DNA from: Alphaproteobacteria bacterium
GTDB lineage: Bacteria; Pseudomonadota; Alphaproteobacteria; JAPOUT01; G958296285
Direction: 5' to 3'
DNA: 64,000 nt
Assembly: GCA_965209065.1 (NCBI GenBank)
Contig: OZ242373.1
Coordinates: forward strand, 467,533-531,532
The notes beneath the pieces were generated by a model. That model was given only the letters and a program-made list of their open reading frames with translations. It searched no databases and was not told where the DNA came from. Positions 1 to 27,179 of this stretch are shown piece after piece. The position numbers and the translations under genes were made by a program. Position 1 is the first letter of the stretch. Each line of letters opens with the position of its first letter.

Positions 1-3000
1 TTGTCTGACGGTGTTGATGATTATATTATCCCCTTTGATGAGCACATTACCAGTGACCGCTTCTCCATTGACGATGTTCGGCAAGCTAATGGCAAGCGCA
101 CCCTTGATAGAGAAGGCGGAGTTATCGTTCATCGTGATATTTGTTTCACCCCTAAAGGCAATGGTTCTATCAAGAGGCATGACTTCGCCACCGATGGTTT
201 GCCCAAGTATGTTGAAATCATTGCCCTCTCCCATAGTCAAGGTGCCTGAGATAAAGAAGGGGAAGAGACCACCATCAACAGACGGCAAGCCTTCTTCAGG
301 CAACTCAAACTCTAAGATGGAAAGAGGATTGCCGCCCGGCGGGACGATTAAGCCCTTTTCTAACACTAAGCGATTGGTAGCCGCAGGGTCGCCCAAGCGG
401 GCGAGCGTTAGCAGCAGGGCTTCTCTGCCTTGCGAAGTAAGCTCGGTAATGCTGTTTTCAACCAGCGAGGTTACTAGAAATTGCTTTCTTGTTTCTATGT
501 CTAGTTTTTGCGCGCCCAGCTTGGCTAATTCCGCCGCTTGGTCGCTTGTTAGGGCGGGGTTGCTTGAGTCAGCAATGTGGGCGGTAGCTATCGCTCTGAG
601 ATCATCTATTTTGCTATTGGTTGCGTCTGGCACAATTAAATCTAGCCTAGTAAGAATTTCGGTAGCAGAAAGCGGATAAATGTTTAGATCACCCCTAAAA
701 GGGCTGGCGGGGTCTATGCTAAGTGGCGTCAAGTCAGCATCAAAAGAAACACCATCAAAGCTATAGATATCGAAGTCACTCGCGAAGCCATCCTCCACCA
801 CCCCAGCTGCTTCAATGTGAACGCCTAAGGCGACGATGGAAGCGGCACTAGTAATAATGAACGTGCTGGTTGTTATTAGAGTAAAATAGCCCTGCACGAT
901 TATTTCGGCGTTACCTAAATTTGTATTCCCGCTTGTCGTAATAACCACCGAGCGTAAAAAAGTGATTTTACCACCAAGCACAGGAGTAGCGCCCTCGGCA
1001 GTTGTTATGGATGGCGTATCTATTACTGTTTTACTTCCTCCTATGAAAAAACCTCCAATAATACCTTCAGTTGCCCTTACAAATGCATCGCCATCATTTT
1101 CAGCACCCTGATCTGCATTTGCACTCACACGCCCTCTTGCGTCAAATATCCTTGCCGTTATAGTGATATTTTTAGCACTAAATAAACTGCTTGTTAAAGT
1201 GAAAGTATCATTTACATTGATAGTTATACTTTCGCTAAAGAGATGCGCAACACCAGCTCCGCCTATAGTCCTGCCCGTTTCGGTAATGCCGAGGGCTTCT
1301 AATGTGAGCGAAAAGGCTTTGATGACCCTGACACTTGACGGGAAAATGATAAAACCATCTGTGGCAAGGTCGCTGGGATTTGCAAGCTCGGAAGCGGTGG
1401 TGCGGAATGTTATGTCGTAGGCTCCAAAATCTAAAACGCCATCGTCATCAATGCTAAATTTCATAAACATATCATTATTGGCTAATAGGTCGGCAATATC
1501 TATATTGGCTTCCGTTACATCAATCACTAGGGCGGGGACCTCAAACCAATCGTAAGCCTCTTGCGGTTGTATGCCCAAATTGGTGATGGTTGGCTTGCCA
1601 CCACTCGGAATGACGAAGGTCGCATCAACACTTGAGGCAAACGACACATTCATTTGCGATAGGGCAATGGCACTCGCCGTTAGCACCACAGGCACGCGCG
1701 CAGCATCTGGCGTTGCGCCGTCCGTGCCGAAACGAATAACACCGATAGCACCGCTATTGCCAGCATTCACCGAAAGCACACCATCGCCGATGTCGATAAA
1801 GCCTTCAAGCGATATATCGCCCAGCGCGGTTAGCGTGAGGTTTTGGTCGCTCGGCGTTGCCTGCGCCACTGCCGAGCGTAGCGAAATACGACTTGCCGTT
1901 ATAATCGTTTCGCCAACGTTTCTAAATATCAGCGCGCCTTTCTCTGCGATAAGGGTAAGCGCGAAATAACGCTCTCCATTGGGGCTATCGCGCAGAACCA
2001 TTGGAATGCCAGAATTAATGTCCGCCTCTGTGGCGATGACGGTTAGGTCGCCAACCGCGTTATTGACAAACTTCGCCCAGTTAGGAATGCCGAAAGTCTC
2101 CGTGCCGAGATAGGTCAGCGAAAGGTCGCTGCCATAAGCAACAGAATTACCTTCCGCCTCAAATTCCATCGCCGTGAGCGAAAGCGCCGTCCTGCCTTGT
2201 GTAATATCAAAACTGGTCGGAATAATAATTTTGCCCGCCCTATAAACGACCGAGATTTCGTCAAGCGCAGCAACCACCCACGCAGGAATGGTGAAGTCCC
2301 CGCTGCCGGTATAAATAACCCTAAGCGAACGAGGTCTAACGGGGTTGGCGAGGCTCACGTCAAACTTCGCCGCCGATAGCGTGAAGAAATTGTCTAGCTC
2401 CAGCCCTACCGTGAGAAAGCCCGATATAGTGATTTGGTCGCTCGCCTCTAACCGAACAGCCGCCTCACTGCCCGAAGGGGACGCGCCCGCAGAGGTCAGC
2501 ACGAGGTTTGCGCCTTTTAGCGTTGTCGCCATATTGCGCGCAAACGCAATGCCCGCATGAACGCCAGAGGGCAGGGCATTCACATTAGGGGCAGCCGTTA
2601 AGGTGAAAGTGCCAGAGCCAATATCGAACGTGCCGCCGAGCAAAATATCACGCGCCGCAAGCAGCGTTAGGTTTTGGTTGCTCGATCTGGGCGTGTCGCT
2701 GGTTGAAAAGAGAATGATGGTTGAAGCCTCAAGCGTGGTCGCGCCACTGCTGGCGAAAAGCAGCTCGCCTTCCACCGCCACTAGTGCCAGGCGGTTGTCG
2801 CCTAAGTTTAGCGAAGTCGGCACGTTAATATCGGCTTTGGTTGCGGTGATGGTTAAATCGGCATCGCTGGTGCGCATCCAGCTGGGAATATCAAACGCAT
2901 TCGCGCCGACATAAATCGCGTTGAGCCAAGCCCACGTCCGCGCTTCACTGCCGGAAACACTGAAACTTAATCCGCGCAAGGTCAAAAAGCCATTGCCGAT

Positions 3001-6000
3001 GTCAAACCCGTTAGGAACAGAAATGCCGCCGTTAAGGTTCGTTATGATTAAATCCCTGTTCTCCAAAATCGCCCACGCGGGAATGGCGTAAGCACCATTT
3101 CCAGTATAAATAAGCTCAAGAGCTTCCACGCGTTCAATCGTGGGGGCGTTGGTGAGCGTGAAGCTTCCCGCTCTAAGCGAAGTGGTGGCGGCGGTTGCCA
3201 CGTTGAAAAGACTCTCATCCTTATCGCCGATGGTGAGCGTGAGTGCGCCACTGCCAATATCAAAAGCGCCGTTAAGCGTCAGCACACCCGCCGTAATAAG
3301 CGTGAGGGCTTGGTTGCTCTGCGTTGGCGTTTCGGTGGTGGAAGTCGCGGTTAGCGTGAGGTTGTTCGCGCGAATAGAGGTCGGCAGGTCAGCCGAGAAG
3401 TTAATCACATCGGAATTGATGCTGAAGTCGCCCGCGCCAGTGTTGAAAACACCACCGATATTAACCTCAAAGGCATCGATGATTTCAAAGTCTTGGTCGC
3501 TCGCCGCCGCGCTTCTGCCGTTAGAAATGAGCGTGACAACGCCGCCGAGTATGTGCGTTGGCTCCTCCTCATCAAAAGTGATAGAGCTACCCGCACCCGC
3601 AATAACCGTGAAGGCTTGGCGACCAGTGGAGAAAAAGCCGCCCAGCTTTACCCTGCCGCCCGCTATAACCGATAGCGGCGAACCTAAAGCTGTGGTCGAG
3701 AGGTCATAGCCTACGGGTATAATTTTTTCAACCGTTGTTATCGTTCCGAGGCCGGTGCCGCCATCCTCAAGGGGGGGGTCATAACTGGGGATGTCAGAAA
3801 AGAGCGCAATCTCATTTCCATCGGAAATAAGCTCAACGTTTCTAGCGCGAATTGTGCCAACGTCAGCCGAGAAATGTAAGCCGCCCTCTGCCGCCTTCAA
3901 GGTTAGATTGCCGTTGCCCAAATCTATAGCCGATATAACGTGAAGTGCCGACTTGGTTGCCGTGATAGATAAATTTTTACCAAAGCTGCCACGCAAAAAG
4001 GGAATAGGGGCATAGCTAGTGAAAGAGCGCTCTTCGCCTTTGGTGGTAGTGTAATCAAAAGTAGTTACTGGTTGAGTGGTGTCGCTATTGGAGAAGTCTT
4101 CGAGGCGGGTATTAAAAGAAACTGCATCTTCCACAAGCAAGAGGTCTTGCTCTCCATGATAGATGAAGGTAAAGTTTTGCCCATAGCGAGGGAAGAATAT
4201 GGCATCTTCAGCAATCTCGATGGTCTCTCTAACTTCAATGGTGAGATTGCCAGTAATGTTAATGTTTCTTAAATCAAGCTCATCTGCACGAATGGTGAAA
4301 TGAGCAGCTCTTACGGATGTCATCCAATTCCTAGGGTTAGGGGTGTCGGCTCTGGGTGAGCCGATGAAATCTATTTCTATTGACCCCCAGTTATACGTGC
4401 CAGTGTCTTCTGCCTGAAATTCGGAGGCGTTGAGGTATAGACTGCCCGAGCCAATGTTTAGGGTGTTAGGAACGACAATTTCGCCATCATCACCTTCATG
4501 GATAACCGATAAATCTGCATTCTCGCGTATCGCCCACGCAGGAATGGCGAACTCGTCTTTACCGCCGGTATAAATAATCTCGATAGCACCAAAAACAAGC
4601 GGGCTTGCATCTTCACCGCTCGAGGGGCCGAGAAGATGGAACCCTCCTCCACCCTTAATCGATAAGGTGCCATCACCAATATCAAAACCATCAGGAATCC
4701 GAATAATGCGAGAAAGCGGCGGCGCTCCTTGTGGGGAGACAACCGATAAATTGATGCCATCAATCATCGCCCATGCGGGAAGGTCGAAAACTTGGCTATT
4801 AGCGGTAACTTCACGTATAGCAATGAGGGAAACCGGGCTATTAGCAGTAATTATCGCGCCCTCTTGGAAAGTAAGATAATTACCCATAGCTTGTAGGTGT
4901 AGATTAAAGGAATCTCCGCCAAAAATAACGTTAGGAGCGTTGAAAGCGATAAGACCAAGACCATTTCCGCGCAGCTCTAATTGGGCGTTCAAATAAAACT
5001 GCGTGCGCGCTATGCTATAGGTGCCGCTTATGGTTATGGTTTCGGTGGCAGTGAGAGTTACGGTGGAAATAATTACACTTATTGGCGTATCGCCAGCAGA
5101 GGTGAGCGTGATATTCTTAGCAGTTAGTGAAGCACCACTTTCTATAAACGCGATAACACCTTGTTGAGCGTTCACGGTAAGCTCACCTGTTCCAAGGCTG
5201 ATAGAGTTTAGAGTGATATTGCCTTGCGTGGCGGTGATAGATAAATCTTTATTTTCACCGCCTCTTGCCATCCAGCCCAGCAAGCCGAAGCTATCTGTTC
5301 CTTTATAGGTGAGGTTTAGCGCGCCGCGGTTGATGATAGCGTCTGCACCCGAAAAGCGCGCCGCCAATAGATTTAGAGTGCCAGTGCCAATATCAAAAGT
5401 GCCTTCAAGGGTTAGGTCGCCCGAAGCATCAAGCGCGAGGGCTCGACCGCTTGGCGCGGGCGTGCCACCTGACGCAAGCAGGTAAATATCATTGCCCTTG
5501 AGCGAGGTCGCCATTGCGGTTGAGAAGTTTATCGGTGCGCCATCGCCCGTGCGCGTTAGGTTTCCTTGCGCGTCAAGGACATGCACTAGCCCCGACTCAA
5601 TGGTGATGTTGCCGCTTCCCGTATCAAAAGAACCGCCGAGCGTTACCGCTCCTGATGCCACGATGCTAAAGACCTTATCGCTTGGCGTGGGGACACCGCC
5701 TCTAGACATTAGGCTGATGTTATTGCCTCTTAGCGATAAGCCGTTTGAAATGGCGGCAATGTTGAAAGGGCTACTTGCGCCCGAAGTGGCAGTGATGTTG
5801 CCGCCCGTTCTTGTGAAGTTGCCGCCCAGCATTAGCGTGCCTGATGCTGTTATCGTTAGGTTTTGCGCGTTTTCTGTCGGGTCTATGCGGGTAGAAATGA
5901 GCGTGATGTTTCTCGCGCTAATGCTTGTTGCGCTGGTGGAAGAGAATTTAAGCGATGCAACTTTAGCAATGAGAATTAAATCTTTATTGCCGAGGTCGAA

Positions 6001-9000
6001 AGAGGTTGGCACCATTATATTGGCGTTGTAGGCCGTGACAGAAACAAGCTCGTTTTGCATCATCCAGCTAGGAATCACAAAGTCATCGCTCTCTAAGCCG
6101 CCAGTGTAGAGAATATGAACCTTATTCGAAGTAACAGCAGGCGCAGAGGCATAAGCATCCTCATTGTTGCTGTAGAGGCTTAGCTCTCCGCTACCGATGG
6201 AAAGCGTGCCGCTGAACGCATACAGACCCGTAGCAATAAGCGCGAGGTCTTGGTTGCTCGCGCGCGCACTGCCAGTGGAGGTGAGCGTAATATCGTTCGC
6301 CGCAAGTATGGTTCTTCTTTCAGTTGAGAAGTTTATCGGCGCACCCGTGATAGACAAATCACCCGTGCCAGCATTGAAAATGCCGCCCAGCAACACACCA
6401 CCCGAAGCCGTGAGCGTGAGGTCTTGGTTGCTTGGGGCAGGAGAAACGCCGCTCAACGAAAGGAGCGTCAGCTTGCCCGTAACATCAATGGAGGTCGGCA
6501 GGCTCTTGGAGAACTTGAAGGTGCCGTATTGACCAGCAGTAATAGAGAGGTCATTAGCGTTGGCAAAAGTGCCGCGCAGGGTTACATTGCCCGAAGCCGT
6601 GATAGATGTGTTTTGATTGCCGCGCCGCGTGCCACTTCTAGAGATGAGAAGGATGTTGTTTCCTGTAATGGAAGTCCTAGAGCTGCCGCCATCAAAGAGA
6701 AGCTGACCATCTGTGCCAGATGGCTCAAGCCGAACGAGAAGCAAGTTCAACTTAGAAAGAGAGAAGGAGGTAGTGAGTCTTGTGCCAGCCGCAATGACAA
6801 TATCACTGCCAATCGGAGAAGCAGAAGAGCGGAAGGAGGTGCTGAAATTGCCGCTCATCTCTATATCATTTCTCGCAATAATGTGAAGCGCGCGGTGGCT
6901 TGGTGCGGGTGCCGGACCTCTAGAGTGAAGATAAATGTTGTTGCCGATAAGATAATGCGTGGTCGTGCCGACAAAGTTGATGGGCGAACCCGTGCCAGAC
7001 ATAACGCTGATATCACCCGTGCCAGTATTTATGAGACCGGCGAGAGCCACACCACCGCGCGCGTTAATCGTCAGCGCATGGTTGTTGCTTGTGGAATCGG
7101 CGAAGCGTAAGGTGATGTTCTGCCCGCTTACGCTCAGCGCGGCAGAGCGGATAACATTATTGCCTTCGCGAATATGAAAACTGCCTCTGCCGAAATCAAA
7201 TTTTCCGCCAAGCGTAATCGTGCCGTTACTCGCAGGAATGAGCTTGACGCTTTGGTGGTTCGGACTCGATTTAGCCGAGAAAAGCGTTATGTTTGCCGCC
7301 TCAATGGTTGTCGTTTCGGTTGTGCTGAACATCAGCGCACCACGCCGCACCTCTATCGTTAATTTGCCCGTGCCAAGATTGACAGAGGCAGGAACAACCA
7401 GCTTAGCACTCGCATTACGCGCACCAATATAGAGGTCCTTGTCTTCCATTATCATACTTTGGGGAATAGTGAAACTGCCCGCGCCCGAATAAATAAAGCC
7501 GATGCCGCCCCTATCCACACTCGGAACAATGCCATCATATTCGGCGGCATCAGGAGGCGTTGTCCCGCCTAGAATAAGCAGCCCGTTGCCAATCTTCAAA
7601 TTAGCGTTTACGCTAATTTCGCCTGCCGCAATAAACGTTAAATTTATATCTCTAGCAAATTGAGTCTCTATTCCAGTCGCGATGCCTATATCATTCGCTA
7701 TGATGGTTGTGTTAATGCCGCTTTCAGAAAAACGCAAATCTTCTTCTATGGTGGCAGTAAAATCACCGCTACCTAAATCAAACGTGCCAGCTAAAGTGAA
7801 GCCGCTGTTAGTAGAAGTCGTTGTAATGGTGAAGTCTTGATTGCTCGGTATAGATATGCCGCCGCTAGAAGTAAGTTCCCCATCATTGGTTGTAATGTTT
7901 GTTGCGCGCGCGGTAGAAAGGTTTATGGGGAAGCGAGAACCCGAGCTAGCCTTGAAGTTGCCGTCTCCCGTATTAAAGTTTCCGCCAAGCGTTATGATGC
8001 CAGTCGCTCTTATGGTGGCGTCCTTGTCTCCTGTGGTGGGTGATGCCTTCGTGCCAGAGTTTAAGGCGATGTGGTTTCCTGTTAGCTTGATGTCGCGACC
8101 GGTTGTGAATTCAATGGCGGCGGCAGCCCCCGAAGTGATAGAGATATTGCCGCTTCCTGTTGCTAGAGGTGTGCCGAGGGCTATCGCGCCGCTTGCCGTT
8201 ATTGTAAAGTCTTGGTTGCTGGCGGTAGGGGTGCCGAAGTGGCTTATAAGCGTGATGTTCGCGCCATTAAGCGAGGTTGCCGTCTTGTCTGATAAAGTCA
8301 CTGTCGCAGTTGAGTTAGTGTTAGAGGTGGTTATGCTAATATGTCTGCTTCCTGTATCAAATTTTCCGCCAAGGCGCACACTGCTTTGGAAAGTAACGGT
8401 GAGGTCTTTATTGCTGGCGGTTGGTGTGCCAACGGAAATGAGGGTTAGGCGGTTTGCGGTAATCATTGTTTCGCTAGCTGTGGAGAAGTTAAGCGCGCGG
8501 GTTTGTGCTTCTAGTGTCAAATCTGCGACTGTTCCAATGGTTATTTCAATAGGCACATTGATGTTTGCTTTTGTCGCCACAACCGATAGGCTCTTGCCCG
8601 ATTCAATCGCCCAATCGGGAATGGATAAATCTGCGTTGCCGGTATAGATAATGCCTGTGCTGCCGCGCACGAAAAGGTCAAACGTGGCTTGAGGGAGAAC
8701 ATTTGAGTTTTCTATCGTCAAGCGACCTGTGCCGATAGTAAAAGAGCCCGTTATGGTAAGTGTGCCTGATGCCTTGAGCGTGAGGTCTCGGTTGCTGGCG
8801 TCGCCGGTCTTGATAGCAGAATTAAGAGTTAAATTGGCGGCGGTTATTGTGGAGTTTGTCTTTACAGATGTTGGTTGCCCCGTGAAGCTTATAGCTCCGT
8901 CTGTTGCTGCGGTAATGCTTAGGTTTTGGAGTTCCCCAGTGGATGACCCACTAGTGGGCGACCCACTAGTGGGGGATTGCGCTTTTATATTTCCATGCAA

Positions 9001-12000
9001 AAATATATTGCCACCATTGATAGTTGTCTCTTTAGTAAAAATTACCTCGTTAGAGTGAATAATTATACTCGACTTGTCATCTCCCTCACCAGCAAGCTGA
9101 ATATGGGACGAGCTAATAGTGATGATGCCCTCAAAAGCTTGAAATATGAAATAAGAACGGCTGGCAAGATGAATACCTGCTTCATCGCCAGAGCCGGTAG
9201 ATCTTGCGGTTAGGTTCATAGTTTTAATGGGGACGGAACTAAGGCTTTCGATATCGGTGGTGCTCAGAACCAAAATGCGATAGGCATCTATCGTAAGTGT
9301 GTTAGTTATCGGCTGGGCGACTTCAAGCACAACATTGGTGTTATTGGTGGTGGTAAGGGTAAGTTCTTGCCGATTGCTATTTCCCATCCAGCTTTTGAGG
9401 GCTAGATAGTTGTCCGCGCCCGCCGCCGCCGTGTAAGTGAGGGTGAGGTTGCGCGTGTCAATACTTGTAGGCGCTGGAGCTTGCTCGCCCGTGCCAGCAA
9501 AAGAAAGGGATACATCGCCACCTGAGAAAAAATAACGACCTGTCATATTAAGCACGCCCGATGCCGTAATGGTGAGATTTTGATTGCTATCACGTCTGGT
9601 AATAGATGGGCTTGCGAGGCTTATATTTCCTGCGGTAAGGGTTATTGGGTTACTTGTTGAAAAAATAAGACTCTTATCAGCCATAATAGTTAAATTACCC
9701 GTGCCAAGGTCTATAGTATGAGGCACGAAAACGTTTCTCAGTTGAGACTGAACGAGTAAATTTTTACCCTTCACAATTCCCCATGAAGGAACACCAATAT
9801 CGTTAGCCGGCTCGAGGCCCCTAGAGATAAAGCCGAAACCGCCTTTGGTGAATTTGTCAAAAAGGGCTTCATCAAAATATCTTCCTTGATAGGACTCCAT
9901 AATCAAGCTGCCGGTGCCAAGATTAAAAGCACCCTCTATGTTGAAAGCATCACTTTCAGCTTCTGGTTTGAGCGTGAGGTTGTTGTTGCTTGGCGTGGCA
10001 GTGCCAGTTGAAGTGAGGTTTATCCTCCTAGCCGCAAGGGTTATATCTTTATCGGTCGCAAAATTAATTGCGCCGACTTCCGCCGTTAAGTGTATGTCTG
10101 CAGAATTACCAACGTTTATAGAGTTGGCAACAAGGATATTTCCTGTGGCGGCGGTCACTCTTAAAGTTTTGCCGCTCACAACCGCCCATGCGGGAATCGT
10201 GAAATTACCCGTGCCAGTATAAAGCAGCAATGTTCTAGAACTGGAAATAGAGGGGGGCGCGGTGGCAAACACATCAGCACTAGAGCCAGATAAAATGAAA
10301 GACGATTCCGACCCAAGATCTATGCCACCTGCCTCCGTTATGGCAATCGTGCCGGTGGGGGCAAGCACCAAGTCTATAAAGTTGTTGCTTCCTTTTGTTG
10401 TGGAGGTGAATGTCAAATCTTTACCTGCAATGGAAACATCTGATGAGGAGTCTACGATGAATTTGAATTCTATTGTGCCGGCTGTGAAAGAGAAGTCGCC
10501 GCTTCCGCTATTAAAGTTTCCTTTGAGGTTCAGCTTGTCGCCCGACATTATTGTGACATCTTGGTTGCTTGCGGTCGGCGTGCCGATGGAGGTGAGGGTT
10601 ACACCTCCAGCGTTAAGGGTGACCGCCGCATCAGTGGCGAAATTAATCGCGCCGACTTGCGCCTCTATGGTGAGCGCAACCGAACCGATGGATAAAGACG
10701 GAACAATAATATCGCCTTTAGTGGCAGTTACCGATAAAGCTATCTCATCTACCGCCGCCCATGCAGGAATGGTTAAACTTCCGCTTCCTGTGAAAATAAG
10801 AGAAAGTTCGCCTTGAAATGTTATGGCAGGGGCAGCAGCAGACTCAAAGAGCTTGGTAGCAGAGCTTTCTAGCGTTAGACCGCCTGTTCCTATGGCAATA
10901 GTGTTGCTCAAGGTTAAAGAGCCAGCAGTGGTAAGGTGTAGATTTTTGTTGCTTGCGGTGGCGGTGCCGCTCGTGTTGAGCGTGATGTTTCCCGCAGCGA
11001 GCGAGTTATGACTTTCGCTTGAAAATTGTATCGGCGCGCCAGTGATAGACAAATCGCCATCGCCGAAATTGTAATGACCGCCTAAGAAAACCTCTCCCGT
11101 TGCGGTAATCGTGAGGTTCTGGTCGCCTAGTCCAAAATACAGCTCGCGCGTGGAAACGAGCTTTATCGAAGCCGCCGTGATGGTTGTTAGGGGTTTTATT
11201 GCCGCCCTCTGTTCTGCCGTGAGGGGTGGGTCGGGTTTTACCAAGAAGAAATGAATTGAACCAACTTGCGCCTCTAAGGTTAAATCCCCCGTGCCAAGCT
11301 CAATAGAGTTAAACACGTTAATATCGCTCAGGGTCGCGGTGATGGATAAATCCTTGTCGGCGTTTATCATCCACAGCTGAACGTTAAAGTTACTCGAACT
11401 CGTAGTCATCACCGTAGTTGCACCAGTATGCATAAAGGTGATGGGCTTCACATAGGATATTTTGCCTGAAAGGGTTAAAGATAAATCCCCAGTGCCGATG
11501 TTGAAATTGCCGCCGAGCGCAAAGTTGCCGGTCGTAATCGTTAGGGCTTGGTTGGTTGTGGTTGGCGTTTCGCTTCCAGAGATAAGCCTTACATTAGCTG
11601 CGGTAATTGCGGTTGCTGCGTCTGTGGCGAAAAGTAGTGCGCCAGCTTTTGCCTCTAGGCTCAAGTTGCCAGTGCCAATATCTATAGTGGGCGTGGCGGT
11701 TAAATCTATATCCGCCGTTGCCGCTATGACGGATAAACTTTCACCATCGGCAAAACTGGCACTCGTAAAGGCGAGGGGGGTATCGCCAGTATAGACAAAA
11801 GCGGAATCCCTTGAGGTAACAGAAGAAAAGAGAGCCGTATAAGCAGCAGCAGTAGCAGGGAATGTTGGGCTTTCTGCTCTAAAGGTGCCTCTGCCAATAT
11901 CAATAGAACCGGTTATGGTAATTGCGCCCGTTGCTTTTAACGTGAGGTCTCGTCCGCTTGGGGTAGATGTGTTAGGGCCTTCGAAGGTGATAGCAGGAGC

Positions 12001-13809
12001 AGTAATGGTGGTTGCTTTATCGGTAGCGAAGTTGAGCCTGGCGGGGTCAAGGTAAAGTAACCCATTTGCTCTTATCACACCACCGAGAGTGATCGTGCCA
12101 CCATTAAGGTGGGTAGTGCCGGTGTCATCAAATATAATTTCATTTCCGGCGATAAAGGTTATATCCTTACCGACATTAGCTGTTGAGCCACTGAAACGGA
12201 TATCATTTGTGGCGTTGAAAGTGAAATGGGATGAGCCGCTTGAGAATCCTTGATCAACACTCTTATCGCGTATGGTTATATTGTTGGCGCTAAGCGTAAT
12301 AGTGCCATTGTCGTCAGGGTGCTGGAACAAGAAAGATGATGTCCCGCCAGCGGATAAGAATAAATCGCCGGTGCCGACATTTATATCTTTGGTGATAGTG
12401 AGTCCTATGTTGCCAGCGGTGCTAACGGTAATGGAGAGGCTTCTGTTTAGCTCCACCATCCAATCGCGCACGGTGAACTGTGCGCTACTTCTGCTATCAG
12501 TTATCTCAAGGGCAGAGAGGTTCAAGGTTAAGTTGCTTAAAGTAGAGGGGAAAGCTGCGGTGGTTTGCTCCCACTTAAAGGTAGCCGCATTGATGATGTT
12601 TGCGTTTGTGAATGTGGGGAGTGCGCCACTGCTGATACTCACCACTTCGGCGGCGAGGGTCGCGCCAGAGAAAGTGAGCGCGGTGGCAGCAGTTAAAGTG
12701 AGGTTTTGATCCGTTCCCGTCCCGCTCATTGTTATATTTTGGTTGATGTTAATTGTCGGCGCAATGAGCGTTAGATTGCCAGCGGCTTTGGTGATAGCCT
12801 CATCAAGCGTTATCGATGTGCCTGCCGCCAGCGAAACATCGCCCGCAAAAGCCGCGATAGACGCCGCCGAAATAACAAAATCACCCGTGCCATCGTCCGC
12901 TAGAACTGCGCCATCGCTGACTTCGCCATTATTATTGGTCGTCTCTGTGTCAATCGTGATGGTGTCAGGGTCAAGCAGTAGCTCCCCCGCTTTCACTTTC
13001 GATAGAGCAAACGAGGCTAAATGCTGCTTGCCCGATATTTCAACAAATCCACTTGATGCATCTATATTGCCTTGAAAATTCGTGTTGCCGTCCGACCAAA
13101 TAATCACGCGCGGTGACTCTATGAACGCGCCCGACTCCACAATCGTTCTTTGCGCGTTAGCAATAGCTCCCTTGCCTTGAAAACCACCCCCAACTAAAAC
13201 TTCTTTATTCGCCGTTAGGGTAGCCGTTGAGCCAAGCCTCACTTCGCCCGCACCCTCTACAATGATACTCTGCGCCTCAATGACACCGCCAACATTGACA
13301 ACGCTATTATTCGCTAAACTCTGTAAATGAACCTCGCCCGAAAGCGCAGTAATAACGCCATCTGCCCGAACCGCGCCAGCACTTGTGCCTGAGGCAGACG
13401 CACTCGCCAGCAAGCCGCCAACATTCACCACAGAACCCGCGCTAAACTCCACACCCGCAGGATTCTCCAACGAAACCCGACCATTCGCCGTTAATGTGCC
13501 TGCTATGGTCGTGCCGCCGCCGTTCCTCACTTTTATCGAAATTAACGCAGAAGCAGAGGGCTGCGCTATATCCACGACCTCATTTTTCGCAATGTCAAAA
13601 CTCTCCCAGCTCGTGCCGAGATAAGCACTATTTTGCTTTATCTGCAAAGGGTTAGTGAGGTCGCCCGCACCCTGCGTGACTCTGCCGCCACTCGGCGCCG
13701 CGAAAGCTCCGCCAAACGAAGTTGATGCCAAAAAAGCAAGCAAAACAAGCGGCTTTCCCGCTCTATTGCCCACTCTACTTATTAAGCGCATAGCTGGTCT
13801 TGGATACAT
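1..13809 (-). CDS. Giant filamentous-haemagglutinin-like (TpsA-type) secreted beta-helical repeat protein; 3' end cut by the window edge (>=4603 codons)
   Basis: Absent from the ORF track because there is no in-window stop. Plus-strand triplets in register 1,4,7... contain no TTA/CTA/TCA anywhere from 1 to 13809, so the minus frame is open; CTA and TTA appear in that register immediately upstream of the start. ATG at 13809 (in-frame alternative 13791) follows AGGGAGGA (13813-13820). The N-terminus reads MYPRPAMRLISRVGNRAGKPLVLLAFLASTSFGGAFAAPSGG, then TPS-domain motifs: SWESFDI, TLTANGRVSLENPAGVEFSAGSVVNVGGLLAS, VIIWSDGNTNFQGNI, GFVEISGK, LLLDPDTITI. At least 24 rungs of type T-P-T-A-S-N-Q-D-L-T follow. 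Confidence 0.9.
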   Translation of the reverse strand, partial: MYPRPAMRLISRVGNRAGKPLVLLAFLASTSFGGAFAAPSGGRVTQGAGDLTNPLQIKQNSAYLGTSWESFDIAKNEVVDIAQPSASALISIKVRNGGGTTIAGTLTANGRVSLENPAGVEFSAGSVVNVGGLLASASASGTSAGAVRADGVITALSGEVHLQSLANNSVVNVGGVIEAQSIIVEGAGEVRLGSTATLTANKEVLVGGGFQGKGAIANAQRTIVESGAFIESPRVIIWSDGNTNFQGNIDASSGFVEISGKQHLASFALSKVKAGELLLDPDTITIDTETTNNNGEVSDGAVLADDGTGDFVISAASIAAFAGDVSLAAGTSITLDEAITKAAGNLTLIAPTININQNITMSGTGTDQNLTLTAATALTFSGATLAAEVVSISSGALPTFTNANIINAATFKWEQTTAAFPSTLSNLTLNLSALEITDSRSSAQFTVRDWMVELNRSLSITVSTAGNIGLTITKDINVGTGDLFLSAGGTSSFLFQHPDDNGTITLSANNITIRDKSVDQGFSSGSSHFTFNATNDIRFSGSTANVGKDITFIAGNEIIFDDTGTTHLNGGTITLGGVIRANGLLYLDPARLNFATDKATTITAPAITFEGPNTSTPSGRDLTLKATGAITITGSIDIGRGTFRAESPTFPATAAAYTALFSSVTSRDSAFVYTGDTPLAFTSASFADGESLSVIAATADIDLTATPTIDIGTGNLSLEAKAGALLFATDAATAITAANVRLISGSETPTTTNQALTITTGNFALGGNFNIGTGDLSLTLSGKISYVKPITFMHTGATTVMTTSSSNFNVQLWMINADKDLSITATLSDINVFNSIELGTGDLTLEAQVGSIHFFLVKPDPPLTAEQRAAIKPLTTITAASIKLVSTRELYFGLGDQNLTITATGEVFLGGHYNFGDGDLSITGAPIQFSSESHNSLAAGNITLNTSGTATASNKNLHLTTAGSLTLSNTIAIGTGGLTLESSATKLFESAAAPAITFQGELSLIFTGSGSLTIPAWAAVDEIALSVTATKGDIIVPSLSIGSVALTIEAQVGAINFATDAAVTLNAGGVTLTSIGTPTASNQDVTIMSGDKLNLKGNFNSGSGDFSFTAGTIEFKFIVDSSSDVSIAGKDLTFTSTTKGSNNFIDLVLAPTGTIAITEAGGIDLGSESSFILSGSSADVFATAPPSISSSRTLLLYTGTGNFTIPAWAVVSGKTLRVTAATGNILVANSINVGNSADIHLTAEVGAINFATDKDITLAARRINLTSTGTATPSNNNLTLKPEAESDAFNIEGAFNLGTGSLIMESYQGRYFDEALFDKFTKGGFGFISRGLEPANDIGVPSWGIVKGKNLLVQSQLRNVFVPHTIDLGTGNLTIMADKSLIFSTSNPITLTAGNISLASPSITRRDSNQNLTITASGVLNMTGRYFFSGGDVSLSFAGTGEQAPAPTSIDTRNLTLTYTAAAGADNYLALKSWMGNSNRQELTLTTTNNTNVVLEVAQPITNTLTIDAYRILVLSTTDIESLSSVPIKTMNLTARSTGSGDEAGIHLASRSYFIFQAFEGIITISSSHIQLAGEGDDKSSIIIHSNEVIFTKETTINGGNIFLHGNIKAQSPTSGSPTSGSSTGELQNLSITAATDGAISFTGQPTSVKTNSTITAANLTLNSAIKTGDASNRDLTLKASGTLTITGSFTIGTGRLTIENSNVLPQATFDLFVRGSTGIIYTGNADLSIPDWAIESGKSLSVVATKANINVPIEITIGTVADLTLEAQTRALNFSTASETMITANRLTLISVGTPTASNKDLTVTFQSSVRLGGKFDTGSRHISITTSNTNSTATVTLSDKTATSLNGANITLISHFGTPTASNQDFTITASGAIALGTPLATGSGNISITSGAAAAIEFTTGRDIKLTGNHIALNSGTKASPTTGDKDATIRATGIITLGGNFNTGDGNFKASSGSRFPINLSTARATNITTNDGELTSSGGISIPSNQDFTITTTSTNSGFTLAGTFDLGSGDFTATIEEDLRFSESGINTTIIANDIGIATGIETQFARDINLTFIAAGEISVNANLKIGNGLLILGGTTPPDAAEYDGIVPSVDRGGIGFIYSGAGSFTIPQSMIMEDKDLYIGARNASAKLVVPASVNLGTGKLTIEVRRGALMFSTTETTTIEAANITLFSAKSSPNHQSVKLIPASNGTITLGGKFDFGRGSFHIREGNNVIRSAALSVSGQNITLRFADSTSNNHALTINARGGVALAGLINTGTGDISVMSGTGSPINFVGTTTHYLIGNNIYLHSRGPAPAPSHRALHIIARNDIEMSGNFSTSFRSSASPIGSDIVIAAGTRLTTSFSLSKLNLLLVRLEPSGTDGQLLFDGGSSRTSITGNNILLISRSGTRRGNQNTSITASGNVTLRGTFANANDLSITAGQYGTFKFSKSLPTSIDVTGKLTLLSLSGVSPAPSNQDLTLTASGGVLLGGIFNAGTGDLSITGAPINFSTERRTILAANDITLTSTGSARASNQDLALIATGLYAFSGTLSIGSGELSLYSNNEDAYASAPAVTSNKVHILYTGGLESDDFVIPSWMMQNELVSVTAYNANIMVPTSFDLGNKDLILIAKVASLKFSSTSATSISARNITLISTRIDPTENAQNLTITASGTLMLGGNFTRTGGNITATSGASSPFNIAAISNGLSLRGNNISLMSRGGVPTPSDKVFSIVASGAVTLGGSFDTGSGNITIESGLVHVLDAQGNLTRTGDGAPINFSTAMATSLKGNDIYLLASGGTPAPSGRALALDASGDLTLEGTFDIGTGTLNLLAARFSGADAIINRGALNLTYKGTDSFGLLGWMARGGENKDLSITATQGNITLNSISLGTGELTVNAQQGVIAFIESGASLTAKNITLTSAGDTPISVIISTVTLTATETITISGTYSIARTQFYLNAQLELRGNGLGLIAFNAPNVIFGGDSFNLHLQAMGNYLTFQEGAIITANSPVSLIAIREVTANSQVFDLPAWAMIDGINLSVVSPQGAPPLSRIIRIPDGFDIGDGTLSIKGGGGFHLLGPSSGEDASPLVFGAIEIIYTGGKDEFAIPAWAIRENADLSVIHEGDDGEIVVPNTLNIGSGSLYLNASEFQAEDTGTYNWGSIEIDFIGSPRADTPNPRNWMTSVRAAHFTIRADELDLRNINITGNLTIEVRETIEIAEDAIFFPRYGQNFTFIYHGEQDLLLVEDAVSFNTRLEDFSNSDTTQPVTTFDYTTTKGEERSFTSYAPIPFLRGSFGKNLSITATKSALHVISAIDLGNGNLTLKAAEGGLHFSADVGTIRARNVELISDGNEIALFSDIPSYDPPLEDGGTGLGTITTVEKIIPVGYDLSTTALGSPLSVIAGGRVKLGGFFSTGRQAFTVIAGAGSSITFDEEEPTHILGGVVTLISNGRSAAASDQDFEIIDAFEVNIGGVFNTGAGDFSINSDVINFSADLPTSIRANNLTLTATSTTETPTQSNQALTLITAGVLTLNGAFDIGSGALTLTIGDKDESLFNVATAATTSLRAGSFTLTNAPTIERVEALELIYTGNGAYAIPAWAILENRDLIITNLNGGISVPNGFDIGNGFLTLRGLSFSVSGSEARTWAWLNAIYVGANAFDIPSWMRTSDADLTITATKADINVPTSLNLGDNRLALVAVEGELLFASSGATTLEASTIILFSTSDTPRSSNQNLTLLAARDILLGGTFDIGSGTFTLTAAPNVNALPSGVHAGIAFARNMATTLKGANLVLTSAGASPSGSEAAVRLEASDQITISGFLTVGLELDNFFTLSAAKFDVSLANPVRPRSLRVIYTGSGDFTIPAWVVAALDEISVVYRAGKIIIPTSFDITQGRTALSLTAMEFEAEGNSVAYGSDLSLTYLGTETFGIPNWAKFVNNAVGDLTVIATEADINSGIPMVLRDSPNGERYFALTLIAEKGALIFRNVGETIITASRISLRSAVAQATPSDQNLTLTALGDISLEGFIDIGDGVLSVNAGNSGAIGVIRFGTDGATPDAARVPVVLTASAIALSQMNVSFASSVDATFVIPSGGKPTITNLGIQPQEAYDWFEVPALVIDVTEANIDIADLLANNDMFMKFSIDDDGVLDFGAYDITFRTTASELANPSDLATDGFIIFPSSVRVIKAFSLTLEALGITETGRTIGGAGVAHLFSESITINVNDTFTLTSSLFSAKNITITARIFDARGRVSANADQGAENDGDAFVRATEGIIGGFFIGGSKTVIDTPSITTAEGATPVLGGKITFLRSVVITTSGNTNLGNAEIIVQGYFTLITTSTFIITSAASIVALGVHIEAAGVVEDGFASDFDIYSFDGVSFDADLTPLSIDPASPFRGDLNIYPLSATEILTRLDLIVPDATNSKIDDLRAIATAHIADSSNPALTSDQAAELAKLGAQKLDIETRKQFLVTSLVENSITELTSQGREALLLTLARLGDPAATNRLVLEKGLIVPPGGNPLSILEFELPEEGLPSVDGGLFPFFISGTLTMGEGNDFNILGQTIGGEVMPLDRTIAFRGETNITMNDNSAFSIKGALAISLPNIVNGEAVTGNVLIKGDNIIINTVRQ
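8945..8974. repeat. 15-bp in-frame tandem duplication inside the giant gene (SPTSG x2), each unit carrying the palindrome CCACTAGTGG
   Basis: GACCCACTAGTGGGC (8945-59) and GACCCACTAGTGGGG (8960-74), 14/15 identical. The minus-strand reading is QSPTSGSPTSGSS. Confidence 0.85.
12940..13720 (-). other. TPS (haemagglutination-activity / two-partner-secretion) domain of the giant protein, about residues 30-290
   Basis: My own translation of the reverse complement gives VTQGAGDL..IKQNSAYLGTSWESFDIAKNEVVDIAQPSASALISIKVRNGGGTTIAGTLTANGRVSLENPAGVEF...GGGFQGKGAIANAQRTIVESGAFIESPRVIIWSDGNTNFQGNIDASSGFVEISGKQHL...AGELLLDPDTITID. This follows the known FHA/ShlA-type TPS pattern, with NPAGV in place of the NPNGI motif. 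Boundaries are approximate. Confidence 0.8.
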
Positions 13810-13844
13810 AAATCCTCCCTAATTTTAGTGCCTACTCACCATAG

Positions 13845-13882: not shown

Positions 13883-13922
13883 TTATCACTTTATTGCTTT
13901 ATTGCCTTATTGCTTTATTTTC
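13883..13922. repeat. 8-bp tandem array x5 (TTATCACT TTATTGCT TTATTGCC TTATTGCT TTATTTTC) spanning the stop codon of the propeller gene
   Basis: Read directly from the sequence. The period is exactly 8 bp. Each unit carries TTA, which is TAA on the coding (minus) strand, at 13883/13891/13899/13907/13915, so all three frames are covered. The real stop is 13907-13909. Confidence 0.85.
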
Positions 13923-15499
13923 CACACGTTAGCGAACTCATCGGAAGTGAAATAGACCGCGCCGTCCTTGCCTACCGCTATTCCTGTCGGCACAACCGTG
14001 GAGACGGGTCCCCCCGAAAACTTGTTAATCGGCAAGCGAGAGGCTAAAACCTTCCTGTTGCCAGCCTTGTCTATCGCCAAAATGCGCTTGAGCTTCGTCT
14101 CCGCTACCACAAAACGCCCGTCAGGCAGGAATGCCAAGCCCTCCGCTCCCTGCAGACCCTGAACAATCACCGACAACTTGCGAGACCTCAAGTTGAACCC
14201 AAAAAGGCGACCCGCCTTGTTCTCCAAGATGTAAAGCGTCTTCTTGTCGCGACTTAACAATAGGTTCGCAGGAGAACCCACTAAACCAGTCGCAAAGGTC
14301 TTCTTCTTTTTCCAACCCTTGCCGCTCAAGCGCAACAGCTTGCCAGTCGCAAACTCCGCCACAAGCAAATCGCCGTTCGGCATCTCTACCGCATCATGCG
14401 GAGTCGTGAAGCCGTGTAGCAATGCCAACGAACGCTTCGTCTTGCGGTCCAAAACCTGAACCGAACCCGCCGACCAACCCGTAAGCAAAATATACTTCGC
14501 GGTCAGCTTGATGTTAATCGGGTAGTCAATCTCATCGCCAAATACCCGCGCTATCGTCTTCACCTCGCGCGTCTGCACGTTAATCGAGCGAAGCGCAAAT
14601 ACATCAGCAACGTAAAGCGTCTCAACCCCATTCTCATCGCCAATCGCCAAACCTCCCGCCGCCGCAAGCTTGCCCGATATAATCGTCCTCGACTCCCCAG
14701 TCTTTTTATCTATCTCTATAATCGCGTTATCCGACATATTAGAAATAAACAGCCGACCATCTTTATCAAACGCGAGGTTGTCAATCGCCGGATTCACTTT
14801 GGCTATCACCTTCTTCTTCCCGCTCTTGCGATTCACGCGAATGACCTGACCCAAAGACGTATCCACAACATAAAGCGCACCAGTCTTAGGGTCGATGTTC
14901 ACCGCCGCCGGCGTTTTGAAGCCGCTCGCAATCGTCCTCATCTTCGCCTTCGCCAAATCTACCTCAACCACCTTGCCCTTAAACCAAAGCGGTCCGTAAA
15001 GCTTGCCGTTCTTGTCTATCTCAAAGCCGTTCAATCCGCCCATGCCCTCCATTATTTTACGCGGCGGCTTCTTGCCCGATGGGTCCAGCTCGTAAAGCGC
15101 ATCACCCAGAAAAACCTGCGTGGCGTAAAGCCTGCCGTCCGCCGCAAACGCAAGCGAATTCATGCCCGGTAACTTCTCGGCAATCGTCCGAATCTCCCCC
15201 GAACCATCTCTGATGTAAACCTTGCCGTCCAAAAATGCCGTCCAAGCAAGCGTGTCCTTGCCGTAAAATGCAACATCATCGGCTTGACCCAAAGGCGGCG
15301 GAACAAGAACCGAACGCGTCCCGCTCTCTATATCAACCGCGTAAAGAGTCGAACCCAAAACCGAACCCGCAAGCAATCGCCCCTGCTGGTCAAATCCAAT
15401 CCCGTGTATGCCGTGAAACGGAGACTTCGGCGTTATCTCCTCTATGTTCGAACAACCCACCGCAAGCAATAAAGCTCCAAGCAAAATATAATGTTTCAT
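13907..15499 (-). CDS. Lipoprotein with about 11-12 beta-propeller blades (NHL / SMP-30-gluconolactonase-like repeats; probably two six-bladed propellers)
   Basis: 530-aa ORF with SD AAGGGAGGA 5 nt before the ATG at 15499. Signal peptide with lipobox MKHYILLGALLLAVGC. A recurrent ~44-aa unit is visible: GIGFDQQGRLLAGS, NSLAFAADGRLYAT, NGFEIDKNGKLYGP, AVNIDPKTGALYVVD, NLAFDKDGRLFISN, GLAFLPDGRFVVAE, GIAVGKDGAVYFTSD. Confidence 0.85.
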   Translation of the reverse strand: MKHYILLGALLLAVGCSNIEEITPKSPFHGIHGIGFDQQGRLLAGSVLGSTLYAVDIESGTRSVLVPPPLGQADDVAFYGKDTLAWTAFLDGKVYIRDGSGEIRTIAEKLPGMNSLAFAADGRLYATQVFLGDALYELDPSGKKPPRKIMEGMGGLNGFEIDKNGKLYGPLWFKGKVVEVDLAKAKMRTIASGFKTPAAVNIDPKTGALYVVDTSLGQVIRVNRKSGKKKVIAKVNPAIDNLAFDKDGRLFISNMSDNAIIEIDKKTGESRTIISGKLAAAGGLAIGDENGVETLYVADVFALRSINVQTREVKTIARVFGDEIDYPINIKLTAKYILLTGWSAGSVQVLDRKTKRSLALLHGFTTPHDAVEMPNGDLLVAEFATGKLLRLSGKGWKKKKTFATGLVGSPANLLLSRDKKTLYILENKAGRLFGFNLRSRKLSVIVQGLQGAEGLAFLPDGRFVVAETKLKRILAIDKAGNRKVLASRLPINKFSGGPVSTVVPTGIAVGKDGAVYFTSDEFANVWKIKQ

Positions 15500-26035: not shown

Positions 26036-26511
26036 AACGCGTAGGCTTATACACCGGAAGTTTCGACCCGATTACGCTAGGGCATTTGGATATTATGCGC
26101 CGCGCGCTCTTGCTGGTCGATAAGCTGATTGTCGCCGTTGGACGCAACGCCTCAAAGGCGACAATGCTCTCTCCCGACGCGCGCCAAAAAATGCTAGAGA
26201 CCCTCGCCAAGGACGAACTCAAAACAGACAAAATACAAGCGGATTCCTTTAGCGGCTTAACGGTTGACTATGCCAAGCAGAATGGCGTAAATATCATCGT
26301 GCGCGGCTTGCGCGATACATCAGATATGGACTTCGAAGCAGGCATGGCAGGTATGAACCACGCGATGAACCAAGATATTGAAACGGTTTTTCTGCTCGCG
26401 CGCCCGCAACATAGCTTTATCTCTTCCACCTTAGTGCGACAAGTTTATCAAATGGGAGGGGACATTTCTCCCTTCGTGCCAGCAAGCGTTCAGGAGGCGC
26501 TAAAAAAATGA
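26032..26511 (+). CDS. coaD: Pantetheine-phosphate adenylyltransferase
   Basis: [29 protein letters not shown] overlap with gyrA. Confidence 0.93.
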   Translation: MKRVGLYTGSFDPITLGHLDIMRRALLLVDKLIVAVGRNASKATMLSPDARQKMLETLAKDELKTDKIQADSFSGLTVDYAKQNGVNIIVRGLRDTSDMDFEAGMAGMNHAMNQDIETVFLLARPQHSFISSTLVRQVYQMGGDISPFVPASVQEALKK

Positions 26512-27179
26512 AAATCGTTCTTATTACTTTTTTACTTCTATTCGCATGTAGCGAAGAAACACCTTCCGCGCAAATACAAGAGCTTATCGATAAAGCCGAA
26601 ACGAGCGACAAGCTCGCGCAATACGCGCTCGGCACTTTATACCTCAAGGGCGAGGGAGGGGTCGCGCAAGATTATCAAAAAGCAGCCCGATGGCTCAAGC
26701 TCGCCGCCGGGCAAAAGCAGGCGGACGCTCAATATATGATGGGGCTTCTCTATCAACAAGGTAAAGGTGTGCGCCAAGATAACAAAAAGGCAATGGAGTG
26801 GTATCTCAAGGCGGCGCAGCAAAATCATAAGGACGCGCAGTTTGAACTCGCCTCTATGTATGAGGCGGGGTATGAGGCGGGAGAACTCGGACAGCCCAAT
26901 TATAACGAGGCGAAGCAATGGTATAACCGCTCTCTTTCTTTAGGCAATGGGCGCGCCGCTTATCAGTTAGGCGCAATGCACCTAAACGGCAGGGGCGTGC
27001 AGCAAAACAATATCGTCGCTCATATTTGGTTTGATTTAAGCACGCGGCTCGGCTTCGACAAAGCCGCCGAAGCAAGAGATGCGATTACAACCAAAATGAC
27101 CCTCAACGAGCTAGAGGAATCTAAAAGACAATCCGATAAACTTTACAACCAACTTAAAGCAAATGGAGTTGTGGAATGA
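26508..27179 (+). CDS. Sel1-like repeat (SLR) lipoprotein
   Basis: Lipobox MKIVLITFLLLFAC. At least 4 SLR units are visible (AQYALGTLYLKGEGGVAQDYQKAARWLKLAA, AQYMMGLLYQQGKGVRQDNKKAMEWYLKAA, ...). 4-nt overlaps with both coaD and the following ppi gene. Confidence 0.88.
   Translation: MKIVLITFLLLFACSEETPSAQIQELIDKAETSDKLAQYALGTLYLKGEGGVAQDYQKAARWLKLAAGQKQADAQYMMGLLYQQGKGVRQDNKKAMEWYLKAAQQNHKDAQFELASMYEAGYEAGELGQPNYNEAKQWYNRSLSLGNGRAAYQLGAMHLNGRGVQQNNIVAHIWFDLSTRLGFDKAAEARDAITTKMTLNELEESKRQSDKLYNQLKANGVVE

Follow-up and report, generated by a model that had tools for sequence, protein, structure and literature searches.

Introduction

The left edge of the 64,000-nucleotide window analysed here (positions 467,533 to 531,532 of contig OZ242373.1 from a member of the Alphaproteobacteria; coordinates below are those of the window unless another locus is named) is occupied by one uninterrupted minus-strand reading frame of almost 14 kb, raising the questions of whether it is a gene, what it encodes and how such a large product could leave the cell. 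The frame proved to be a part of a real, intact and very large tpsA, the passenger gene of a two-partner secretion (TPS) system, which departs from the known TpsA in its lineage-restricted repeat modules, a massive paralogue expansion in small genomes and the uncoupling from tpsB, the gene of the transporter. The reading favoured here, held with more confidence than doubt, is that of a TpsA passenger (type Vb) exported by a TpsB and forming an adhesin fibre that is probably anchored to the cell.

Extent and start of the giant open reading frame

A preliminary description, made from the sequence by eye, had placed an open reading frame (ORF) of at least 4603 codons on the minus strand at 1..13809. 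Translation of the reverse complement of this interval gave 4,603 residues with 0 stops and no frameshift, and the frame continues past the left window edge. With stops expected at 4.6% of codons from the regional base composition, a run of 4,603 codons without a stop has a probability of ~10^-93.6, which bears out the earlier statement that this length is impossible by chance; the longest open run in the remaining five frames was 268 codons. The gene accounts for 21.6% of the window (more than 20% had been claimed) and is missing from the ORF track for the reason given before: the list omits ORFs running off the edge and shows only six antisense plus-strand ORFs in the interval (179–268 aa [amino acids]). 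None of the six matched a Pfam family, and they were rejected as real genes. The omission of edge-truncated ORFs from such tracks means that the largest gene of a window can stay hidden.

The ATG start codon (13809-13807, minus strand) is preceded at a distance of 3 nt by the Shine-Dalgarno sequence AGGGAGGA (13813..13820, minus strand), called strong in the preliminary description, and by in-frame TAG and TAA 4 and 6 codons upstream, the TAG at 13821-13819 overlapping the Shine-Dalgarno sequence. This start was favoured because of the Shine-Dalgarno spacing; the paralogue alignments begin at Met7 of the product, and the ATG at 13791, 18 nt downstream, could be an alternative start. The part of the product encoded in the window has a mass of 476 kDa and an isoelectric point of 4.6, contains zero cysteine and is rich in T, A, G and S. 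Because of the T/A/G/S-rich repeats, the G+C content of the gene is flat over the three codon positions (0.494, 0.496 and 0.509); in the neighbour genes it is 0.38–0.42 at the second and 0.47–0.63 at the third position.

Signal peptide and secretion domain

The order of a signal peptide followed by a TPS domain, proposed earlier, was supported by several lines. The predicted Sec-type signal peptide (residues 1-38; 13696..13809, minus strand), recognized by inspection and hydropathy, has a basic n-region and PLVLLAFLASTSFGGAFA as its hydrophobic core, with cleavage likely at AFA/AP; hydropathy peaks at 1.84 over residues 22-33, and the mature N-terminus aligns with the beginning of the EtpA TPS domain. 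The TPS domain itself (residues 38 to ~290; 12940..13698, minus strand) exceeded the curated cut-offs of two family models, the Pfam PF05860 (TPS) that had been named as a check (36.9 bits against 33.5, residues 38-250) and NCBIfam TIGR01901 'adhes_NPXG' (49.2 bits against 29.1, residues 67-139), placing significant matches inside the region of residues ~30-290 indicated before. Its NPxG beta-turn motif, NPAG (residues 116-119; 13453..13464, minus strand), aligns with the NPNG of EtpA, both N116 and G119 being invariant in both family alignments; the role of the NPNG motif in TPS domains has been described (PMC5422565).

Two families of TPS domains are known, FHA/HpmA and HMW1/HxuA (PMC5422565). 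With the window sequence alone, phmmer against PDB matched EtpA at 1.5e-19, HxuA at 6e-13 and HMW1 at 2e-8, while a family-profile search reached 1e-123 for EtpA and 2e-68 for HMW1; the PDB sequence matches of the domain were to EtpA, HxuA or HMW1 exclusively. An AlphaFold2 model of residues 1-420 (predicted local distance difference test, pLDDT, 86.9; predicted template modelling score, pTM, 0.84) was all-beta with a beta-helix. The best eight PDB matches of this model in Foldseek were the secretion domains of HxuA, EtpA and HMW1 (probability 1.0, E 1e-6 to 1e-10), with modest template modelling scores (TM-scores) of 0.30–0.46, and FHA (1rwr) and HpmA were matched at E 0.2–1 only. Since the structural and the sequence matches agree, and with two described families to choose from, the product is, as judged from sequence and model, a TpsA of the HMW1/HxuA/EtpA branch. 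Of the "giant TpsA/FHA-like exoprotein" of the preliminary description, the TpsA part therefore stands, while the likeness to FHA in the narrow sense does not.

Repeat shaft

The TPS domain is followed by a shaft of ~50 degenerate copies of a ~70-aa unit, termed module A (residues 331-4064; 1618..12819, minus strand). A hidden Markov model (HMM) iterated from one seed found 52 matches between positions 331 and 4064, covering 3,146 residues, with the consensus ..SNQ.LT(I/L)TA.G.(I/L).L.G.F..G.G.L.(I/L)....I.F......(I/L).A..I.L.S.G..P and with a 'YTG..F.IP.W(A/M)' head on ~12–17 of the copies. The internal repeats were not found in a BLAST self-comparison of the window product, and the module A profile had only chance-level matches in PDB. 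In a search of Pfam and NCBIfam with all 4,603 aa the TPS was the sole match, and nothing relevant appeared when the shaft was scanned in four pieces at Pfam E<=1: the FHA-type repeat families Fil_haemagg (PF05594), Fil_haemagg_2 (PF13332) and PATR (PF12951) were all absent, so that two of the domain checks suggested earlier, PF13332 and PF12951, turned out negative. Some 80% of the window product (residues 331-4603) is without a described family.

At the DNA level the module A copies are only 60–80% identical, with spacings in multiples of 3, and the repeats are therefore old and kept at the protein level. Recent DNA duplication or recombination cassettes within the gene were considered and rejected, only these old repeats being seen. 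The sole perfect tandem repeat in the gene (8945-8973) consists of 1.9 copies of a 15-nt unit, GACCCACTAGTGGGC, which contains a 12-nt palindrome, CCCACTAGTGGG, and encodes SPTSG-SPTSG in a linker at ~residues 1613-1622; it looks like recent slippage in an otherwise ancient repeat gene.

The end of the module A region overlaps a single copy of a second unit, module B (~115 aa, residues 4055-4175; 1285..1647, minus strand), with the motif ATF.IP..GKP...DWF...INI..LLA...LDFG...IIFP. A seed HMM gave one strong copy in the window, 13 full copies in the paralogue P0095, three in the paralogue P0096 and one in the extension of the orthologue described below. The remaining residues 4176-4603 (1..1284, minus strand, with the ORF open at base 1) form a lineage-specific non-repetitive stretch with a short helix-rich insert at ~residues 4399-4458 and no Pfam match at E<=1. 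AlphaFold2 was uninformative for residues 4065-4603 (pLDDT 46). An exhaustive search of 1.84 billion representative proteins found two relatives of this part only, both of the same family, and a search of GTDB genomes and of JGI metagenomes with the last 300 residues of the window product yielded none. A word-indexed protein search gave no match for residues 4065-4603, returned nothing longer than 1,047 aa and missed orthologue fragments 95% identical to residues 4367-4568, while the exhaustive search and contig look-ups found proteins of 3,994–7,242 aa; giant proteins may thus be under-reported by the word index.

Paralogue expansion in a narrow lineage

The window GyrA is 74–75% identical to those of two alphaproteobacterial metagenome-assembled genomes, CBDBUR01 (contigs of 0.71 and 1.10 Mb, 1.81 Mb together) and OZ243043.1 (a 1.61-Mb chromosome), while other GyrA relatives, those of Parvibaculales and Hyphomicrobiales included, reached at most 57% identity. 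No members of this lineage were found in JGI metagenomes. TPS genes are present at nine CBDBUR01 loci, mostly as giants (from 2,115 to >3,874 codons), with several arranged in tandem. Altogether ~10 giant paralogues fill at least 112 kb, i.e., at least 6.2% of the 1.81 Mb of CBDBUR01, which is a lower bound comprising genes with three or more module A copies, as genes run past the loci examined. The paralogue P0095 (locus L109) has 7,242 aa and a continuation of 1,097 aa, giving ~8,340 aa.

The window gene and L109 have 49–72 copies of module A, other giant genes of the lineage 7–37, and 94 related tpsA loci from other taxa essentially none; by these counts the module is restricted to this lineage. 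The TPS domains of the paralogues are 64–73% identical to each other, in contrast to 25–37% for the shafts. No described equivalent of such a giant TpsA family was found in the literature.

On CBDBUR010000001.1, the contig coordinates suggest that some giant ORFs assigned to separate loci are parts of a single gene. A gap of 2.2 kb separates the second L094 gene from the first L086 ORF, which together would encode ~7,800 aa; between the L087 gene and the first L089 ORF the gap is 10.5 kb, and a gene spanning it could encode more than 10,000 aa.

Orthologue and C-terminal end

The end of the protein lies beyond the window and was followed in an orthologue, L004, on the ENA long-read metagenome contig ERZ25069786 ctg49934 (5.2x coverage). 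It is 89.5% identical to the window product over residues 1246-4368 and 85–95% identical up to residue 4603. Since its coding potential runs 3.35 kb past the point corresponding to the window end, up to a stop at L004 13395-13397, the full protein is predicted to have about 5,700 aa (~590 kDa), with ~1,100 residues outside the window. The extra ~1,100 residues comprise more shaft of modules A and B, including a 48%-identical copy of residues 300-561. A cargo beyond the left edge had been expected in the preliminary description; the additional length of ~1,100 aa is seen in the orthologue, while a toxin cargo is not, its place being taken by a domain with a Cys pair. In the terminal 1,142 aa of L004 no toxin or PT-VENN domain was found at Pfam E<=1, and the sole match above cut-off was a weak G8 beta-helix. 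The orthologue ends with …SWAESITCTTESLCQ (…CTTESLCQ) directly before the stop codon, a segment holding its only two cysteines.

The same ending was observed throughout. A Cys pair, 3–18 residues apart and within the last ~30 residues, terminates all complete C-termini (11/11), read from the orthologue, P0096, L109, six CBDBUR01 genes, two 800-aa relatives and one planctomycete relative, in proteins that are otherwise nearly free of Cys. The orthologue, P0096 and L109 have a ~250-aa C-terminal domain in common (50–55% identity), which gave only chance-level matches in PDB. For HMW1 and HxuA, a disulfide loop in the C-terminal anchor is described as locking this end of the protein in the TpsB pore (PMC5422565, citing Buscher et al. 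2006). Because the terminal Cys pair fits the HMW1-type TPS domain, the fibre encoded by the window gene is inferred, by analogy, to be anchored to the cell.

In the two relatives, CBDBUR01 and OZ243043.1, a gene of the thiol:disulfide interchange protein DsbD lies directly 5' of a giant tpsA and in the same orientation (L092 6754-8988(+) and L093 6899-8983(+)). With a Cys pair conserved at the C-termini, this neighbourhood is curious, but it may simply represent shared synteny.

Proposed mechanism and points against it

In the favoured mechanism, Sec would export the giant protein, and the POTRA domains of an unlinked TpsB of the Omp85 family would recognize its TPS domain. The protein would then be threaded, N-terminus first, through the TpsB barrel and, once outside, fold vectorially as a right-handed beta-helix, making a fibre in the order of 100 nm; this length is scaled from FHA, in which ~2,000 aa make ~50 nm. 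The C-terminal disulfide loop would stay in the periplasm and plug the transporter, as proposed for HMW1 and HxuA, and the anchored fibre would act as an adhesin towards a host, a partner cell or a surface.

Several observations weigh against this scheme. The 50 kb of window sequence upstream of the gene contain no tpsB, the housekeeping bamA being the sole Omp85 gene there, and a TpsB HMM found none in 386 kb around at least 15 tpsA genes of the lineage. The C-terminus of the window gene itself lies outside the window, so that its anchor is taken from relatives, and the orthologue copy is broken by two in-frame stops and three frameshifts, which could be either assembly errors or decay. For the shaft, a beta-helix is predicted only by its repeat pattern and by the part of the model that covers residues 290-420. 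A comparison of the window gene with the orthologue over 2,931 codons (94.3% nucleotide identity) gave an unusually high ratio of nonsynonymous to synonymous substitution rates (dN/dS) of 0.69, indicating weak or diversifying constraint, although errors of the 5x contig may inflate it. Finally, no glycosyltransferase gene of the HMW1C/EtpC type was found near the gene or in the tables of genes at related loci, and the product has 70 N-x-S/T sequons against 61.5 +/- 6.5 expected, which is no enrichment.

The protein might alternatively be secreted by a TpsB and released, as a cytolysin similar to ShlA/HpmA, a bridging adhesin similar to EtpA or a fibre of a matrix or biofilm. EtpA, to which the TPS domain has its best match in PDB, is indeed a secreted adhesin (PMC5422565), and the anchoring role of the Cys pair comes by analogy only. 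Its strict presence at the very end of 11/11 proteins is, however, hard to explain without a structural role like that of the HMW1/HxuA plug, and the cytolysin-type TPS domain of HpmA is a poor structural match (E 0.2–1), making release of the fibre unlikely.

Uncoupling from the transporter gene

Nearly all studied TpsA proteins, the classic adhesins and toxins of pathogens, are encoded beside their transporter gene. The TpsB HMM used to look for such a neighbour was made from 34 sequences and gave 758 and 388 bits with positive controls and 20 bits with the window BamA. In related tpsA loci of other taxa, each covering at least 12 kb, a TpsB adjoined the tpsA in 29 of 37 cases, usually directly upstream and on the same strand, as compared to 0/14 loci of the lineage (Fisher p=2.5e-7). 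The region downstream, seen in the orthologue only, contains a Sel1 gene and a second tpsA and no tpsB. Judged from these gene orders, the uncoupling of tpsA from tpsB is real and lineage-specific. Two further searches brought no TpsB of the lineage, each within its limits: a TpsB-seeded database search was shallow (32 matches, none from lineage contigs), and phmmer with two TpsBs was an insensitive method.

One unlinked TpsB probably serves the whole paralogue family. Such a single shared transporter would fit because the TPS domain is far more conserved among the paralogues than the shaft, and some TpsBs are documented to secrete more than one TpsA (PMC5422565).

The same absence of tpsB (0/14 against 29/37), together with the TpsB-seeded search and the small genomes of the relatives (1.6–1.8 Mb), would also fit a non-canonical export, with no dedicated TpsB and with BamA, TamA or another route handling the giant TpsAs. 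The inspected loci, however, make up only ~20% of the relative's genome, and the search was shallow. The strong conservation of the TPS domain among the paralogues argues for a specific receptor, and TpsBs serving several unlinked TpsAs are on record (PMC5422565). Non-canonical export is accordingly regarded as very improbable. We know of no TpsB-independent secretion of a TpsA, which also counts against this route.

Possible contact-dependent inhibition or decay, and selection

Proteins of this size and class include CdiA, which reaches a similar size (PMC5422565), and an off-window C-terminal toxin with an immunity gene, delivered into neighbouring bacteria for contact-dependent inhibition, has to be weighed as well: the real C-terminus of the window gene lies beyond the window, and the tandem paralogues bear a superficial resemblance to polymorphic toxin loci. 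In the 90%-identical orthologue the end is formed by beta-repeats and the Cys pair, without PT-VENN or toxin domain at E<=1. No immunity gene was found beside it either: the next gene is not a small immunity gene but a divergent Sel1-repeat gene on the opposite strand, followed by the second giant tpsA (3,994 aa). In addition, the TPS domain is of the HMW1/HxuA and not of the FHA/CdiA branch, the shaft is devoid of repeats of the FHA-1/FHA-2 type, and 11/11 C-termini share one ending instead of having variable tips. A CdiA-like function is therefore considered extremely improbable.

Substitutions between the window gene and the orthologue are nearly equal at all three codon positions, and the shaft is, by this comparison, evolving fast, through relaxed or diversifying selection. 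This pattern and the dN/dS, as well as the stops and frameshifts in the orthologue and several metagenome paralogues, could be taken as signs of a non-functional family of expanded repeat genes drifting to pseudogenes, but such decay is hardly credible because the window copy has an uninterrupted 13.8-kb frame (P ~1e-94) and nine long CBDBUR01 ORFs (2,115 to >3,874 codons) are unbroken, while the broken copies all come from long-read contigs of 3.7–7x, where indel errors are expected, and the TPS domain, the module consensus and the C-terminal motif are all conserved.

Comparison with known systems

The closest parallels to the anchored fibre favoured here are in the same TPS branch. HMW1/HMW2 of non-typeable Haemophilus influenzae (PDB 2odl) have, like the window product, a Sec signal and a TPS domain of this branch, and the HMW1 passenger is likewise beta-helical and Cys-poor, with a disulfide anchor tethering it to TpsB that resembles the Cys pair of the orthologue and the paralogues. 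HMW1, however, has ~1,500 aa against ~5,700 aa predicted here, its shaft sequence is unrelated, and hmw1A is in an operon with hmw1B (TpsB) and hmw1C (glycosyltransferase), neither of which is near the giant gene. Glycosylation of the HMW1C type was rejected for the window product, whose sequons, as mentioned, are not enriched.

EtpA of enterotoxigenic E. coli (PDB 8cpk, 8vba), the best TPS match by sequence, also continues into a long repetitive beta-helix after the TPS domain, but it is far smaller (the longest deposited chain has 1,564 aa), its repeats do not match module A, and it is glycosylated, released and encoded in an etpBAC operon, unlike the setting of the giant gene. The heme/hemopexin-binding protein HxuA (PDB 4i84, 4rm6) was the top structural match of the N-terminal model and has a C-terminal disulfide anchor domain (PMC5422565). 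It differs in its length of ~900 aa and in working with HxuB and HxuC in haem uptake, and no hxuBC-like genes are present in the window. FHA/FhaB of Bordetella pertussis and CdiA share the general TpsA architecture, the giant size and the fibre-like beta-helix; their TPS branch is different (Foldseek E 0.2 for 1rwr), the Fil_haemagg, Fil_haemagg_2 and PATR repeats typical for them are absent from the window product, the CdiA pretoxin/toxin/immunity module is absent from the orthologue, and fhaC or cdiB adjoins their genes, while the giant gene has no tpsB beside it.

Genomic setting

Elsewhere, the window carries a housekeeping segment of the chromosome, with proS, lolCDE-like genes, gyrA, tgt, queA, cysNC, a glmU-like gene, glmS, gltA and gltX, and with bamA in its usual context. 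The upstream neighbours of the giant gene on the same strand encode an SGL/ScyE-like beta-propeller, a FemAB-like and a RidA-like protein. The gene of the SGL/NHL beta-propeller (530 aa; 13907-15499, minus strand), a member of the ScyD/ScyE family with 90.8 bits, is located 97 nt 5' of the giant gene, and a promoter scan of the gap between them found nothing. Because the gap is without a promoter-like site, co-transcription of the two genes is possible; we know of no functional link between the beta-propeller and a giant tpsA.

Restriction-modification genes were seen near a giant tpsA in three related loci: an EcoRI-like pair at L001 4900-6214 (minus strand), a Type ISP enzyme of 1,578 aa at L109 25780-30516 (plus strand) and a Type I M/S fusion at L093 3161-5977 (plus strand). 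Their proximity suggests that the giant tpsA genes are located in variable genomic regions.

Four Sel1-repeat genes are scattered on the plus strand among the housekeeping genes of the window (26508-27179, 28741-29634, 37216-38208 and 38208-39665), and a further one separates the two giant tpsA genes on the orthologue contig (L004 13407-13946, minus strand). Together with the 1.6–1.8 Mb genomes of the relatives, these genes hint at a host-associated lifestyle.

Implications

The furthest-reaching version of these results would be that the proteins are lineage-defining fibres with lengths from 5,700 to >8,000 aa, built of repeat modules that occur nowhere else, amplified to ~10 copies (at least 6% of a ~1.8-Mb genome) and with no linked TpsB, exported either by a promiscuous unlinked TpsB or by BamA/TamA, and forming the main attachment apparatus of the cells. 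This combination is judged quite unlikely. If true, export without a dedicated linked TpsB would add a new mode to type V secretion, and the fibres would be the main apparatus for host or partner attachment in an uncultured, probably host-associated clade of Alphaproteobacteria. The family also offers natural tests of how one transporter might serve many very long substrates and of how general the HMW1-type C-terminal disulfide plug is. If expressed, the giant TpsA would probably be the dominant structure of the cell surface and would point strongly to cells that live attached to a host or partner.

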